Assembly (NCBI GenBank): GCA_031411295.1
Contig: JANOAV010000035.1
Span: forward strand, 68,926-132,925
Origin: Verrucomicrobiales bacterium
GTDB taxonomy: Bacteria > Verrucomicrobiota > Verrucomicrobiia > Verrucomicrobiales > V1-33
Reading direction: 5' to 3'
DNA: 64,000 nt
A program made the position numbers and the translations under genes. The notes below the pieces were generated by a model. That model was not told where the DNA came from, searched no databases, and saw only the letters and a program-made list of their open reading frames with translations. Position 1 is the stretch's first letter. Each line of letters opens with the position of its first letter. Positions 22,284-27,234 of the stretch are shown here, one piece after another.

Positions 22284-22463
22284 CTAATCGCCCAGTCCCA
22301 GCGCCTCCGCCCAGACTTCATCATCCGCTTCATCGAAGCGAATGAGCATGGGGCGACAGCAGACTTCGCAATCGTAATCGACCTCACACGGGACCTCGTC
22401 CAGGGACGGGGCCAGCACGGAGAATTCCTCGAAGCAGGATGGGCAAGTGACAGGGCAGAGCAT
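22284..22463 (-). CDS. CPXCG-motif cysteine-rich small protein
   Basis: 59 aa: MLCPVTCPSCFEEFSVLAPSLDEVPCEVDYDCEVCCRPMLIRFDEADDEV. It matches the CPxC..DC.VCCRP pattern of this family. The longer track ORF is an N-terminal extension. Confidence 0.65.
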   Translation of the reverse strand: MLCPVTCPSCFEEFSVLAPSLDEVPCEVDYDCEVCCRPMLIRFDEADDEVWAEALGLGD

Positions 22464-22680
22464 CGCGCAACATGGACCAAAATGCGATCGGTCGCAAGTT
22501 CCGCGTAATCCAGAACCAATGCGCGTGTGGTGCGTAATGCTGCGATGGACCATGCTGCTATCCACCGATGGCATTGTCGTGTGTCGGTTCGGAAGAAAAA
22601 CCATTTTCTTTCCGCCAATCGCTGCTATTCTCCGCGCTCCCGCACCGACCCATTTTCTCCTTTTTCCATTCCCTCCGGCC

Positions 22681-25600
22681 ATGACCAGCGCTCAAATTCG
22701 CCAATCCTTCCTCGATTTCTTCAAGTCCAAGCAACACACCATCGTGCCCAGCGACAACGTGGGTTACACGAGCCGTGATGGCGCGCGGATCTTTACCAAT
22801 GCAGGGATGAATCAGTTCGTGCCCATCTTCCTGGGCGAGCGCACCGCCGATGTGGACACCTGGCCGGGCGTGCTCAGCAAGGGCCTGCCCACGCGGGCAG
22901 CGGACACGCAGAAGTGCATTCGCGCAGGCGGGAAACACAACGATTTGGAGGATGTGGGCCTGGACACTTACCACCACACGTTCTTCGAAATGTTGGGGAA
23001 CTGGAGTTTTGGCGACTATTTCAAAAAGGAAGCCATCGCTTGGGCGTGGGAACTGGTGATCGAGAAATGGAAATTTCCACCCACCCGCGTCTTCGCCACC
23101 ATTTACCAACCCGGCCCCGGGGATCCAGCGGATCGCGACCAGGAGGCCTGGGACATCTGGGCGGAGAAATTCCGCAGCGTGGGCTTGGACCCGGACATTC
23201 ACATCGTGAACGGCAACAAGAAGGACAACTTCTGGATGATGGCCGACACCGGTCCGTGCGGTCCGTGCACAGAAGTGCATATCGACCTAACACCCGGCCC
23301 GATTGCCTTGGATGAAGATCGCCAACGCGCTGGTGCAAAGCTGGTGAATGGATCGGACGCGAGCTGTATTGAGATCTGGAACAATGTGTTCATTCAATAC
23401 AATGCCAATCCCGATGGCACCTTCGTGCCGCTGCCCGCCCAACACGTCGATACCGGCATGGGCTTCGAGCGCGTGTGTTCGATCATCCAAGGCACGAAAA
23501 ATTTCACCGACTTCGAGACTGCGAAGATCAGCAATTATGACACGGATGTCTTCAAGCCGATCTTCGATGAACTAACTAAACTCAGCGGCAAGCACTACAA
23601 GAGCACGCTCCCGAAAGCCAACGAGCAAGGAAACGTAGTCCCTGTGACCGAGCAGGAGAAAATCGACGTGGCCTTCCGCGTCATTGCCGACCATTTGCGC
23701 ACCCTGAGTTTCTCCATTGCGGACGGCATTCAGCCGGGGAACTCGGATCGGAATTACACCCTGCGCCGGATCCTGCGTCGGGCGGTAAAATACGGCCGCA
23801 CCCTGGAATTCCAGGAGCCGTTCTTCTACAAACTGGTGGACGTGCTGGCCGAACACATGGGCGATGTCTTCCCGGAGATTCGTGTGAAGCGTGAGCAGGT
23901 GAAGGCGGTGCTGAAGGTCGAAGAGGAGAGCTTTAATCGGACGCTGGATAAGGGCATCGTGCTATTCGAGAGCGAAGCGAATCGATTGCTAGGCACCGCA
24001 GGTGCCGCCCCGGGTAGGGCGGGTGTCTCACCCGCCGGGGTCGGCGTCCCGCCGACCTCTCAGGGCGTCTCGCCCTCTTCTGGTGCGTCTCGCACCAAAC
24101 GCAGAACGCTGCCCCATTTCGAAAAACCTTGGGCCATTTACAACCTCACGGTCACCACGCGTGATCGTCGTTTCCTAACTCCCGAGGCAAGAACCATTAC
24201 GCTGGACGCCATCAAACATTTTGATGGCAAGCGTTTCGAGCTATTTGCAGCTTGTGTGATGCCGGACCATTTTCACATGCTCCTACAACCTTGGCCGAAG
24301 GAAAACGATGGAACCTCCGTGTTCTGGACGTTGGGCGAGATTATGCATTCCGTAAAGAGTTTTACTGCAAAGGAGATTAACAAGCAGGAAGGGACTACTG
24401 GCTCGGTGTGGAATGAGGAACGGTTTGATCGCTATATTCGGTCAGATGCTGATTTGGAGGAGAAGTATAACTATATTTTAGATAACCCTCGCAGGGCTGA
24501 AATTGTCTCCATGGTTGGGGAGTATCAGTGGACTTGGACGCACGATGACAGGCTGGGCGAGACGCCCGAAGGAAGCGAGACGCTTCGTGCGTTTGGCGAG
24601 ACGCCAAACGCGGCGGGCGGGACGCCCGCCCTACCCGTGCCTTGCGATGCCTCCGGCATCGTCCCATCTGGCGCAACTTGCGCCGATTCCTCAGGTAGGG
24701 CGGGTGTCCCGCCCCTTTCCGCAGACTTCGCCTTCCGCCTTTACGACGAACAAGGCTTCCCACTAGACCTCACAGAACTCCTAGCGCGCGAACGCGGCCT
24801 AACGGTAGACACCGCTGGCTTTGAAAAACTAATGGATGAACAAAAGGCTCGCGCTCGTGCGGCTGGCCAAAAGAACAAACAGATCGTTTCCGTCAGTGAA
24901 ATCGAGACCAAGGAACCGACGAAATTTATCGGTTACGATGCATTGGAAGCCGATGCCAAGGTGCTGGAAGTCGTTTCCATGAAGGATAAGACAGCGGTGG
25001 TCTTGGACACATCCACTTGCTATGCCGAAATGGGCGGTCAGGTGGGTGATGCCGGTAATTTCATCATCGGGGCCAACAATTTCCCCATCGTTTCCACCAC
25101 CAAGGTCGGCAACACATGGCTGCATTTCCTGGAAGGCGAAGACGCCCCGGCGGTTGGTTCCACGGTGCGACTCGCAGTGGATGCGGAGCGTCGTCACGCC
25201 ATCGAGCGGCACCATACCGTGACCCATATTCTGCATTGGGCACTGCATGAGGTCGTCAACAAAGACGCCACCCAGAAGGGCTCCAACGTGACTCCAGAGA
25301 AACTCACCTTCGATTTCAACAGCGCAGCCCTAACGCCGAACCAATTGGCCGACATCGAGCGTCTGGTGAACGAACGCATCGTGGCGAACGAATCCGTTTC
25401 CTGGAGCGAAGTGCCCTACGCCGACATCAAATCCAACCCCGGCATCATGGCTCTCTTTGGCGAGAAATATGGCGATCTGGTCCGCGTGGTGCAGATCGGC
25501 GGGAAGCCTCATGCGCTCAACGGTTACAGCATGGAACTCTGCGGCGGCACCCACACCCGCGGCACGGGTGAAATCGGACTCTTCAAACTGGTCAGCGAAA

Positions 25601-26151
25601 GCGCAGTAGCCGCAGGCGTCCGCCGTATCGAAGCCATTGCCGGCCTCGAAGCCTACCACACCGCCCGCAGCGAAACCGAACTCCTCCGCACCCTGGCCGG
25701 GAAACTCAGCGCTCAAGGCACCGCTGACTTGGAAAAGAAATTGGACGCTATGCTGGAACACACCAAGTCACTAGAACGCACTATTAAAGCCGCCCAGCAG
25801 CGCGAAGCCTCCGGCAAAGCCAAGGAACTTCTCGCCAGCGCCAAGGAAAACATCATCATCGCCAACCTGGGCGATGTGGATGCCGACTACCTCGTAGCCG
25901 TGACTGATGTGCTCAAAGTGCAACTGAACGGCGTGGTCGTCCTCGGCGGCACCGGCGGCGGAAACGTCGCGTTAGTGGCCAGCGTGGGTAAAGATTGGCA
26001 AGCCCGCGTGCAGGCAGGCAAAATCATCTCCGCCATCGCCCCCATCGTCGGCGGCAAAGGCGGCGGCAAACCCGACTTCGCCCGCGGCGGCGGCAAGGAC
26101 AGCAGCAAAGTGGACCAAGCCCTGACTGAGGCACGGAAGTTGATTGGATAG
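22681..26151 (+). CDS. alaS: Alanine--tRNA ligase carrying a ~240-aa in-frame insertion
   Basis: Starts MTSAQIRQSFLDFFKSKQHTIVPS. Class II core, FRLYDEQGFPLDLT, editing-site HHTVTHILHWALH and CGGTH, and a C-terminal GGKGGGKPDFARGGG. It is 1156 aa versus 876 aa in E. coli. The track ORF start at 22447 is an upstream extension. Confidence 0.95.
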   Translation: MTSAQIRQSFLDFFKSKQHTIVPSDNVGYTSRDGARIFTNAGMNQFVPIFLGERTADVDTWPGVLSKGLPTRAADTQKCIRAGGKHNDLEDVGLDTYHHTFFEMLGNWSFGDYFKKEAIAWAWELVIEKWKFPPTRVFATIYQPGPGDPADRDQEAWDIWAEKFRSVGLDPDIHIVNGNKKDNFWMMADTGPCGPCTEVHIDLTPGPIALDEDRQRAGAKLVNGSDASCIEIWNNVFIQYNANPDGTFVPLPAQHVDTGMGFERVCSIIQGTKNFTDFETAKISNYDTDVFKPIFDELTKLSGKHYKSTLPKANEQGNVVPVTEQEKIDVAFRVIADHLRTLSFSIADGIQPGNSDRNYTLRRILRRAVKYGRTLEFQEPFFYKLVDVLAEHMGDVFPEIRVKREQVKAVLKVEEESFNRTLDKGIVLFESEANRLLGTAGAAPGRAGVSPAGVGVPPTSQGVSPSSGASRTKRRTLPHFEKPWAIYNLTVTTRDRRFLTPEARTITLDAIKHFDGKRFELFAACVMPDHFHMLLQPWPKENDGTSVFWTLGEIMHSVKSFTAKEINKQEGTTGSVWNEERFDRYIRSDADLEEKYNYILDNPRRAEIVSMVGEYQWTWTHDDRLGETPEGSETLRAFGETPNAAGGTPALPVPCDASGIVPSGATCADSSGRAGVPPLSADFAFRLYDEQGFPLDLTELLARERGLTVDTAGFEKLMDEQKARARAAGQKNKQIVSVSEIETKEPTKFIGYDALEADAKVLEVVSMKDKTAVVLDTSTCYAEMGGQVGDAGNFIIGANNFPIVSTTKVGNTWLHFLEGEDAPAVGSTVRLAVDAERRHAIERHHTVTHILHWALHEVVNKDATQKGSNVTPEKLTFDFNSAALTPNQLADIERLVNERIVANESVSWSEVPYADIKSNPGIMALFGEKYGDLVRVVQIGGKPHALNGYSMELCGGTHTRGTGEIGLFKLVSESAVAAGVRRIEAIAGLEAYHTARSETELLRTLAGKLSAQGTADLEKKLDAMLEHTKSLERTIKAAQQREASGKAKELLASAKENIIIANLGDVDADYLVAVTDVLKVQLNGVVVLGGTGGGNVALVASVGKDWQARVQAGKIISAIAPIVGGKGGGKPDFARGGGKDSSKVDQALTEARKLIG
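23995..24715 (+). mobile_element. REP-flanked HUH/Y1 tyrosine-transposase (RAYT / IS200-like) module inserted in frame within alaS
   Basis: The encoded segment RRTLPHFEKPWAIYNLTVTTRD..FAACVMPDHFHMLLQP..MHSVKSFTAKEINK..GSVWNEERFDRYIRSD..KYNYILDNPRRAEIV..YQWTW has an HUH motif (CAT TTT CAC, 24268..24276) and a Tyr in Y-I-x-x-N-P (24472..24474). Flanking hairpins lie at 24018..24036, 24615..24635 (inverted) and 24698..24714. A 15-bp direct repeat GGTAGGGCGGGTGTC occurs at 24013 and 24694, 681 bp (227 codons) apart. Confidence 0.8.
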
Positions 26152-26400: not shown

Positions 26401-27234
26401 ATGGCCCAGCGGTATCTAGACCCGAAAAACGCCATCGTGTTCAAGCGCATATTTGGCGAGCATCCGCTGATTCTGCGCTCGTTTCTCAATGCGTTATTGC
26501 CATTGCCGGAGGATGGTCCGATCGTTTCACTCGAGTATCTCAATCCCGAGCAAGTGCCGCAGTTGCCGCTGCTGAAAAACTCCATCGTGGATGTTCGCTG
26601 TCGAGATCAACAGGGACGGCAATTTATCGTGGAAATGCAAATGAACTGGACCAGTGCGTTTTTGCAACGGGTGCTCTTCAATGCCAGCAAAGCCTACGTT
26701 AGACAGCTGGAACGCGGGGAGCAATACGAACTGCTGCAGCCAGTGATGGGCCTGTCCTTGCTGGATGATATCTTTGACCGCAAGAGCGACGAATATTATC
26801 ATCACTATCAATTGGTAAACACCGGTCAGCCTGAACGCGTGATTAAGGATTTACAGTTAGTGTTCGTCGAGTTACCCAAGTTCAAGCCCTCGCGAGCCAT
26901 GGCTCCGCTTAAACGGGCGTGGATTCGCTTCCTGCGGGAAACGGGCGATGCGTCCACCAGTGAGGCCCAGGCTGTATTGAAATCAGAAGTAGCCAGCCAG
27001 GCCCCAGAGATTCAAAATGCGCTGGAGTTGTCAGGCGAAGCCGGTTTCAGCCGAGGCGAATTGGAAGCCTATGACCGCTACTGGGACGCAGTGAGTTCCG
27101 AGCGCACCCTTATTTCAGGAAAATTTTCCGAAGGAAAGGCCGAAGGAAAGGCCGAAACAGAACTGGCTTTGGTAGCCAAACTTGTGGCCGGAGGCATGAG
27201 CGAAGCAGAGGCCAAACGATTGGTTCACGATTAA
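26401..27234 (+). CDS. Rpn-family recombination-promoting nuclease / PD-(D/E)XK putative transposase
   Basis: MAQRYLDPKNAIVFKRIFGE..LLNALL..DVRCRDQQGRQFIVEMQ is typical of the PD-(D/E)XK Rpn/YhgA-like family. The C-terminus has a tandem EGKA repeat. Confidence 0.75.
   Translation: MAQRYLDPKNAIVFKRIFGEHPLILRSFLNALLPLPEDGPIVSLEYLNPEQVPQLPLLKNSIVDVRCRDQQGRQFIVEMQMNWTSAFLQRVLFNASKAYVRQLERGEQYELLQPVMGLSLLDDIFDRKSDEYYHHYQLVNTGQPERVIKDLQLVFVELPKFKPSRAMAPLKRAWIRFLRETGDASTSEAQAVLKSEVASQAPEIQNALELSGEAGFSRGELEAYDRYWDAVSSERTLISGKFSEGKAEGKAETELALVAKLVAGGMSEAEAKRLVHD

Follow-up and report, generated by a model that had tools for sequence, protein, structure and literature searches.

Canonical REP-associated tyrosine transposases (RAYTs) are stand-alone genes that lie in intergenic clusters of repetitive extragenic palindromic (REP) sequences and are accompanied by hundreds of dispersed REPs or REPINs. 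The REPtrons of this kind, described in E. coli (yafM/TnpA-REP, structure 4ER8) and in Pseudomonas (RAYT-REPIN), resemble an element identified here in a stretch of 64,000 nucleotides from a Verrucomicrobiales bacterium (contig JANOAV010000035.1, positions 68,926 to 132,925 of the forward strand; hereafter, the window). The element has in common with them the enzyme family, the inverted, GTAG-tagged GC hairpins and a REP doublet; its enzyme is likewise encoded in a single copy (in the window) and its repeat type co-varies with the enzyme clade. Unlike the canonical RAYTs, however, it has no start or stop codon of its own and lies inside an essential gene, alaS, encoding alanyl-tRNA synthetase (AlaRS). 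The insert is probably a compact REP-RAYT-REP cassette, that is, a REPtron, belonging to a Verrucomicrobiota lineage that lives as an in-frame guest in host genes.

Several other described systems share part of these properties. Intragenic GTAG REPs occur in Opitutus terrae (Verrucomicrobia), in repair genes and tRNA synthetases (Di Nocera et al. 2013; PMC3733652), and in-frame REPs have been found inside RAYT genes (Quentin et al. 2018; PMC6006769). Like the window insert, intragenic REPs and the Rickettsia palindromic elements (RPE) are palindromes lying in frame in loops of housekeeping proteins, presumably translated, and the insert also agrees with them in being an in-frame loop palindrome absent from close orthologues. 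They are, however, short non-autonomous repeats encoding 20-80 residues, whereas the window insert carries a whole transposase as a folded guest domain. Inteins with homing endonucleases likewise reside in frame in essential, conserved genes (synthetases, helicases, replication and repair proteins), are expressed only via the host gene, are protected from imprecise deletion, are distributed patchily and recur at the same sites. Yet they possess a Hint domain and splice-junction residues, neither of which is present in the window insert, nor does it show signs of protein splicing; the insert occupies a permissive loop rather than a catalytic site, carries a single-strand HUH/Tyr nuclease and, unlike inteins, apparently stays in the mature protein. 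In IStrons, where a transposon of the IS200/IS605 family is combined with a group I intron, an element of the Y1 superfamily is also tolerated inside genes (PMC4227781); there a ribozyme removes the element from the mRNA and frame is not needed, whereas in the window insert no ribozyme was detected and the frame is strictly kept. Finally, the Y1 HUH fold and the hairpin or inverted-repeat ends are common to the insert and to the IS200/IS605 and TIRYT elements, and some copies of the embedded lineage look mobile. IS200/IS605 elements differ in having asymmetric left and right ends, as opposed to the symmetric inverted REP arrays of the insert, which has no tnpB; as for TIRYT, the published end consensus GGGG[AT][CG]A[CG] does not fit GGGTAGGG or GGGGAGCG.

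No description of a complete RAYT lying in frame within host genes was found in the open-access literature and bioRxiv, an earlier description elsewhere being possible. Transposases go unmentioned in a survey of domain insertions from 2026. The automatic annotation of the Joint Genome Institute (JGI) labels two proteins 'alanyl-tRNA synthetase/REP element-mobilizing transposase RayT'. While the RAYT/REP kind itself is known, what appears to be new here is the REPtron as a translated, non-splicing guest domain, in a form far more general than a single case.

The window contains one alaS gene and one RAYT, and no others. The reading frame at 22447..26151 (+) is open throughout, insert included, with no stop or frameshift. 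As judged from relatives, alaS starts with the ATG at 22681 (MTSAQIRQ...), so that the gene encodes a protein of 1156 amino acids including the insert. The mechanical open reading frame and the database protein P0001 (1210 aa) both run upstream of this conserved ATG (22447-22680), and the deposited gene model probably begins too far upstream. An earlier note, made from the DNA letters alone, had described about 240 extra codons interrupting alaS in frame; these are present where it placed them, between ..LFESEANRLLG and ..PLSADFAFRLYDEQGFPLDLT (continuing ..PLSADFAFRLYDEQ) of AlaRS, in the variable loop that precedes the AFRLYD helix (compare the human AlaRS structure 4XEM). In alaS pairs, both halves of the host gene are under strong purifying selection, with ratios of nonsynonymous to synonymous substitution rates (dN/dS) of 0.04-0.17. 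The features of the locus are as follows.

22681..26151 (+): alaS, alanine--tRNA ligase, the host gene (TIGR00344, 772 bits; Pfam tRNA-synt_2c, tRNA_SAD and DHHA1)
23958..24717 (+): variable cassette without DNA homology to the closest alaS relatives (blastn), covering the last helix before the loop, the loop and the insert
23992..24006 (+): additional short hairpin GGCACC-GCA-GGTGCC, immediately external to the left terminal repeat (hairpin scan)
24011..24094 (+): left terminal inverted-repeat arm, with the GTAG head at 24014-24017; encodes the linker GRAGVSPAGVGVPPTSQGVSPSSGASR
24094..24555 (+): RAYT (TnpA-REP-type Y1/HUH) catalytic domain (NF047646, profile match, AlphaFold, Foldseek)
24554..24637 (+): right terminal inverted-repeat arm, ending in the inverted REP head CTAC at 24632-24635; encodes GETPEGSETLRAFGETPNAAGGTPALP
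24638..24693 (+): spacer of 56 nucleotides (nt) separating the third REP from the right terminal one, with small hairpins at 24645-24661 and 24670-24684 (hairpin scan, fold)
24694..24714 (+): third REP, GGTAGGGCGGG-TGT-CCCGCCC, oriented as the left terminal REP (inverted repeat, exact 15-mer)

The insert domain is identified as a RAYT because sequence, motifs and fold agree. The earlier note had recognized in it an IS200/RAYT-type Y1 domain with intact HUH and Tyr motifs and had proposed a search with hidden Markov models (HMMs) as a check. Both models scored above threshold: the NCBIfam model NF047646 (REP_Tyr_transpos) with 91.2 bits on the insert alone and 87.5 on the whole protein (cut-off 80), and Pfam Y1_Tnp with 26.2 (cut-off 23). 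The IS200/IS605 transposase model NF033573 gave 22.1 bits, below its cut-off of 55. The HUH motif reads PDHFH (His codons 24268-24270 and 24274-24276) and the Tyr motif N-Y-I-L-D-N-P, of the Y-I-x-x-N-P type (catalytic Tyr codon 24472-24474); both are invariant or nearly so in the RAYT alignment (A1). A profile of the insert domain and its relatives matched the E. coli RAYT 4ER8, the HUH and Y-I-x-x-N-P motifs lying in register (E = 4e-5). Whether modelled alone or in the full-length protein, the RAYT core was predicted by AlphaFold with a pLDDT of about 90 or more, and the linkers (residues 441-478 and 628-674) were disordered, with a pLDDT below 50. The best PDB match of the core in Foldseek was again 4ER8 (E = 7.9e-7, TM 0.60 on target), followed by the transposases (TnpA) of IS200, ISDra2 and IS608. 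The GC content is 45-51% in the RAYT core, 63-69% in the arms and about 55-60% in alaS.

The mobile unit proper extends from 24012 to 24637, its ends being GGGTAGGG...CCCTACCC. These outer ends are GTAG-tagged REPs in inverted orientation, the arrangement of a REPtron. They belong to two arms of 84 nt each that are 73% complementary. The left arm is made up of four tandem GC hairpins with TCT/TCC loops (24018-24036, 24039-24057, 24062-24076 and 24081-24097) and folds as single-stranded DNA with -34.4 kcal/mol (z = -7.1 vs shuffles); the right arm comprises four hairpins with AGA/GGA loops (24555-24567, 24572-24586, 24589-24611 and 24612-24631) and folds with z = -6.3. Two control segments internal to the RAYT gave z = -1.6 and +0.7. 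The third REP is 95% complementary to 24615-24635, 58 nt apart, forming a REPIN-like doublet, and 24608-24720 folds as a single long hairpin with a 21-bp stem (z = -6.8). The palindromes that had been noticed at 24018, 24615 and 24698 are all found, and the inverted GTAG REPs, the strongly folding arms and the REPIN-like doublet bear out the REP/REPIN-plus-RAYT arrangement that had been proposed from them. The 15-bp direct repeat that had been thought to bracket the element exists as well: GGTAGGGCGGGTGTC is found at 24013 and, 681 nt further on, at 24694, and an inverted copy with one mismatch occupies 24621-24635, as against 0.13 copies expected by chance and none of 100 shuffles reaching three. 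It is not, however, a target-site duplication; its two copies represent the REP head, once in the left terminal REP and once in the third. A metagenome scan with GGGTAGGGCGGGNGTC was uninformative on REP abundance: among the matches listed (at least 124), 18 continue as a palindrome and none adjoins a RAYT.

Downstream of 23992, the first in-frame ATG, GTG or TTG is the GTG at 24256, only four codons ahead of the HUH motif. The absence of a start codon of its own and a frame open through both arms imply that the RAYT can be made only by read-through from alaS. The reverse strand of the insert has 6-8 stops in every frame. Shuffled linkers remained stop-free in 26% of trials; combined with a factor of 1/18 for strand and phase, this gives by our arithmetic a chance of about 1.4% that a random insertion would read through. 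One such open-frame case is explained by selection in an essential host, and the interest of the arrangement lies in its recurrence in dozens of loci.

The same loop is occupied by a RAYT in no fewer than 14 further AlaRS sequences, the transposases belonging to several lineages. The carriers include full-length proteins retrieved by a whole-protein search (P0002, P0007, P0008, P0009, P0010, P0012, P0013 and P0016), AlaRS-RAYT fragments (P0204 and P0275) and genome loci (L025, L034, L053, L072 and L089). One of them, P0016, is present on 10 contigs from several samples, which argues against misassembly. The alignment with related alaS genes that the earlier note had called for also brought out close relatives without the RAYT and defined the insertion point. 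When the loop is excluded, the AlaRS of the window is 99% identical to P0003, 97% to P0004 and to P0005, 95% to P0006 and 94% to P0011; none of them carries a RAYT, and the loop, 35-128 residues long, differs in every one. In blastn comparisons with L001, L009 and L010 (the DNA of P0003, P0004 and P0005; 91-94% identical), homology ends at 23954-23959 and resumes at 24718 (L001 and L009) or at 24754 (L010). Since the homology breaks there, the replaced segment is taken to be 23958-24717, with the helix before the loop included. The end coordinate proposed previously, 24715, does not hold, as it is off the codon boundary.

The hosts P0008 and P0010 are 92% identical (host dS 0.3-0.5), whereas their RAYTs are only 46% identical (proportion of nonsynonymous differences, pN, 0.35). 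A neighbour-joining tree, which has no support values, places the AlaRS-embedded RAYTs in at least five separate lineages; some nest among copies embedded in threonyl-tRNA synthetase (ThrRS) or RecG or among free-standing copies, and free-standing copies nest within host-embedded clades. Their terminal repeats differ in parallel, forming families (GGGTAGGG(C/T)GGG, GGGTAGCGCACGCG and GGGGAGCGCACGCG) that co-vary with the RAYT clade. Despite the separate lineages, the left junctions of all AlaRS carriers fall within about two codons (..L-x-G|), which identifies the loop as a recurrent landing site. The recurrence could be ascribed to a site preference, to interspecies exchange of alaS segments or to the existence of very few permissive sites.

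The same loop is variable in other ways. In a Prosthecobacter-like clade it is hypervariable, with 20-134 mostly unrelated non-RAYT residues in 114 sequences (P0003-P0120) that are otherwise 80-99% identical, and the preceding helix is replaced among them as well. Two of the non-RAYT inserts have a GC content of 47-48%, vs 55-57% for the gene, and are devoid of hairpins, Pfam domain and RAYT similarity. The idea that the non-RAYT inserts might be decayed RAYTs was rejected, the RAYT HMM giving E >= 0.9 on all of them and no Pfam domain being found. The 'empty' loop of the closest relative (L001:4310-4350) contains a different, AT-richer palindrome, CCTATTGG-T-CCAATAGG, and a short direct repeat, and encodes PISPIGPIGP; it is not ancestral either. 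A second AlaRS site harbours an in-frame RAYT in other organisms (P0201 and P0256). It lies just before ..EQ.KIDVAFRVIADH and corresponds to about 23605-23680 of the window, the loop STLPKANEQGNVVPVTEQEKIDVAF; there the RAYT is flanked by peptides encoded by direct, not inverted, repeats.

The lineage extends well beyond alaS. A scan with the RAYT alignment, one genome per species, returned 520 relatives, of which the best 80, all from Verrucomicrobiota, were kept; among these species-representative genomes the best match is 65% identical to the window's RAYT. Upon stop-to-stop extension, most of the 80 matches proved to lie in long open reading frames. Assignment of the hosts by BLAST and Pfam gave the following distribution.

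RecG: 57 of the best 80 loci, at one fixed site between helicase motifs
ThrRS: 14 of the best 80, in one loop of the catalytic domain
AlaRS: 5 of the best 80, in the same loop as in the window
MetH: 2 of the best 80, between two domains
MmeI-like restriction-modification enzyme: 1 of the best 80
Host not recognizable: 1 of the best 80

About six loci counted as RecG show only short, linker-level matches and look free-standing. The figure of 74 out of 80 loci in genome bins with a recognizable host gene is probably inflated, since short contigs of multi-copy repeats are rarely binned. As a basis for estimating the embedded fraction, a word-indexed protein search was rejected, its top lists favouring short sequences and missing known full-length carriers; an unbiased HMMER search of 1.84 billion cluster representatives was used instead, yielding 6327 hits at E <= 0.001. 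Among the best 150 of these, 48 are at least 400 aa long, with the RAYT internal in nearly all. By Pfam, the long representatives include 15 AlaRS, 6 class I aminoacyl-tRNA synthetases (three with the C-terminal arm of valyl-tRNA synthetase, ValRS), 5 PurH and 6 DEAD-box helicases (four RecG, one PriA), and further long hosts are DNA methylases, Ham1, a protein of the HSP70 family, a glycyl-radical enzyme and a protein of the biotin-ligase family. RAYT domains inside additional hosts such as PriA, ValRS and PurH are exemplified by P0308, P0326, P0360 and P0413 and by alignment A4. On both sides of many embedded domains, REP-encoded peptides can be recognized (for example, GSARVSRAG.. and ..RRDACAT).

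Free-standing copies also occur. L075 and L082 are surrounded by REPIN-like clusters, and a conserved family of 217 aa starts 8 codons before the left repeat (M.AA.S..GSARV..) and stops 5 codons after the right one (members: P0124, P0127, P0150, P0173, P0174 and P0221). As these stand-alone copies, too, are read through both repeats, the open frame through both ends is a property of the cassette. Among the loci L011-L090, the embedded state is exemplified by L040 (RecG), L014 (ThrRS), L076 (MetH) and L013 (MmeI-like). Many Chthoniobacterales and Udaeobacter genomes have a RecG that bears the RAYT at a single fixed position, and over 20 species with RecG proteins 20-35% apart share an identical terminal repeat, GGGTAGCGCACGCGTCTCGCGT. 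Locus L019, from a metagenome-assembled genome, bears the label Chthoniobacter flavus. Some genomes contain two embedded RAYTs of different lineages in different genes, namely CAWGMG01 (L017 and L089), CAVVOH01 (L029 and L072) and QHNJ01 (L054 and L062), paired as ThrRS with AlaRS or RecG with AlaRS. In several embedded copies recovered from long-read bins the frame is broken, perhaps through sequencing indels or decay.

Both the protein and its DNA ends are conserved. Of 91 RAYT domains, 87 retain the H-x-H and the catalytic Tyr, and in alaS pairs the RAYT has a pN of 0.11-0.35, far lower than the proportion of synonymous differences (pS) of 0.76-0.91. In 44 RecG hosts the ratio of RAYT to host distance is 1.04 (Spearman 0.43), indicating long-term retention with divergence at the host's rate; the corresponding ratio in ThrRS hosts is 1.38. 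Conservation at third codon positions in the RecG set amounts to 0.83 in both terminal repeats vs 0.57-0.59 in the RAYT core and the RecG flanks, which shows that the ends are constrained as nucleic acid, beyond their role in encoding linkers.

The guest-cassette explanation, which we consider the most likely, builds on what the analysis shows: the anatomy of the insert, its family membership and fold, its open frame, its recurrence, purifying selection and the conservation of its ends at the DNA level. The cassette lies at the end of an exposed loop in the tRNA-recognition region of AlaRS and would be translated with the synthetase as one 1156-aa protein in which the guest domain is retained. 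Its GC-rich hairpin arms would double as two disordered linkers of about 35-50 residues, rich in Gly, Ala, Pro and Ser, letting the HUH/Tyr nuclease of about 150 residues fold independently and leaving AlaRS undisturbed. The nested transposase would borrow the promoter and ribosome-binding site of the essential gene, and its removal would need a precise in-frame deletion: the persistence logic of inteins, without splicing. E. coli TnpA-REP cleaves and recombines REP/BIME (bacterial interspersed mosaic element) single strands in vitro, as stated in the accessible portion of PMC3333891; by analogy, the embedded RAYT domain probably still cuts and rejoins single-stranded REP hairpins, namely its own ends and the adjacent doublet. 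It seems conceivable that such cleavage and rejoining could drive excision, turnover, replacement and re-insertion at the AlaRS loop. Several points weigh against this explanation. We infer that the fusion is translated, that its enzyme is active, that the cassette is mobile and that its location protects it. The RAYT tree carries no support values, 4 of the 91 RAYT domains are without one catalytic residue, and the dN/dS of the RAYT is only bounded because synonymous sites are saturated. The host-rate conservation in RecG fits a function at the level of the host equally well as selfish persistence. The GGTAGGGCGGGTGTC REP is found nowhere else in the 64 kb, dispersed copies being absent outside the insert, and around embedded RAYTs elsewhere the repeat is, within about 8 kb, nearly confined to the two ends of the element itself. 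Lastly, the host part of the full-length AlphaFold model is of low confidence (pTM 0.35), and for this reason no claim is made about the projection of the domain relative to the tRNA.

A broader and more tentative proposal, which we regard as possible rather than probable, is that this RAYT lineage leads an intein-like life. Its members would be open cassettes of about 0.6 kb, free of start and stop codons, which would be translated as guests, would occasionally move, would have an enzyme active while tethered, and would return to a few permissive loops in alaS, thrS, valS, recG, priA, metH, purH and other genes by site-specific insertion or allelic exchange.

Alternatively, the RAYT might be part of a domesticated, functional fusion, kept for the benefit of the host and not because it is hard to delete; one might think of a single-strand nuclease/ligase delivered to stalled forks via RecG or PriA, or of moonlighting in AlaRS. 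Several hosts are indeed DNA helicases (RecG and PriA), and in the 44 RecG hosts the RAYT occupies a fixed site, retains its catalytic residues and evolves at the rate of RecG. HUH-helicase pairings exist in nature in the Rep/Hel protein of Helitrons and in relaxases. RAYTs are, moreover, generally viewed as domesticated, vertically inherited single-copy genes (PMC5581495 and PMC3333891). This interpretation is attractive for RecG and PriA; for alaS, however, it is contradicted by patchiness and polyphyly: AlaRS proteins 94-99% identical to that of the window are without the insert, the 92% identical hosts P0008 and P0010 have RAYTs that are only 46% identical, and AlaRS-embedded RAYTs fall into the five or more lineages of the unsupported tree. 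Furthermore, the hosts are functionally unrelated (aminoacyl-tRNA synthetases of both classes, MetH, PurH and restriction-modification enzymes), and a purely protein-level domain would have no need for ends conserved as DNA hairpins. Overall, domestication seems an unlikely explanation.

Considerably less probable still is that functional AlaRS is produced only once the insert has been taken out, whether by RNA splicing or processing guided by the arms, by protein splicing, by ribosomal bypass or by precise RAYT-mediated excision from single-stranded DNA in some of the cells, which would make the in-frame state incidental. The arms, complementary over 84 nt, could join the flanks in RNA or single-stranded DNA; Y1 transposases of the IS200/IS605 family are known to excise precisely from single strands (PMC6006769), and IStrons show that this transposase superfamily is able to combine with a self-splicing RNA (PMC4227781). 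Nonetheless, an Rfam search of 23700-25000 gave chance-level hits only (E >= 0.13), with no intron or other family, and Pfam finds no Hint or intein domain in the 1156-aa protein, in agreement with the earlier note, which had seen no intein splice motifs. The junction residues vary among carriers, with no conserved Cys/Ser/Thr or His-Asn, and a RAYT lacking its own start codon requires read-through. What decides the matter is that dozens of independent elements and hosts have kept some 240 codons open and in phase with the host gene on either side, which would be needless if the insert were removed ahead of translation. Among the three readings put forward initially (a tolerated domain insertion, a domesticated fusion, or an element removed at the RNA or protein level), a tolerated, translated guest domain under selection is thus favoured, and removal is disfavoured. 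That the locus is an artefact or a dying gene, either a chimeric RAYT-alaS assembly or a pseudogene backed by a second copy, is hardly credible: the window does come from a single assembly, and REP-like repeats are classic sites of assembly breaks, but the same architecture recurs in the same loop in at least 14 independent assemblies from different sources, one of them on 10 contigs, the frame is intact on both sides between alaS halves under the purifying selection noted above, and there is no second alaS in the 64 kb.

Immediately 3' of alaS, at 26401-27231 (+), lies a gene of the PD-(D/E)XK 'PDDEXK_2' (Rpn-like) nuclease/transposase family, copies of which, 84-89% identical, are found 1-2 kb 3' of alaS in L009 and L010. 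When 22590-26150 of the window was compared with L001, L009 and L010, the alaS DNA was 91-94% identical, the homology beginning about 90 nt 5' of the start codon and stopping at the stop codon. The neighbours of alaS differ among the window and these three loci, indicating that the gene lies in rearranged contexts.

RAYTs and REPs are among the commonest repeat systems of bacteria, and their persistence and role are unsettled. The present analysis adds a branch of RAYTs that is without independent expression and resides in essential genes, with catalytic residues and DNA ends kept. For annotators, it means that 'too long' housekeeping proteins with a transposase match, discarded by earlier surveys, are real. 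The permissive loops of AlaRS, ThrRS, ValRS, RecG and PriA, which tolerate a guest of about 240 residues, should be useful for protein engineering, and the naturally occurring fusions of RecG, PriA and aminoacyl-tRNA synthetases to a single-strand nuclease make the in vivo role of RAYTs testable. The guest cassette would represent a second, splicing-free answer to the problem of how a selfish gene can occupy an essential one and leave its host alive; if the intein-like reading is true, these elements would constitute a new class of non-splicing, protein-embedded mobile element.

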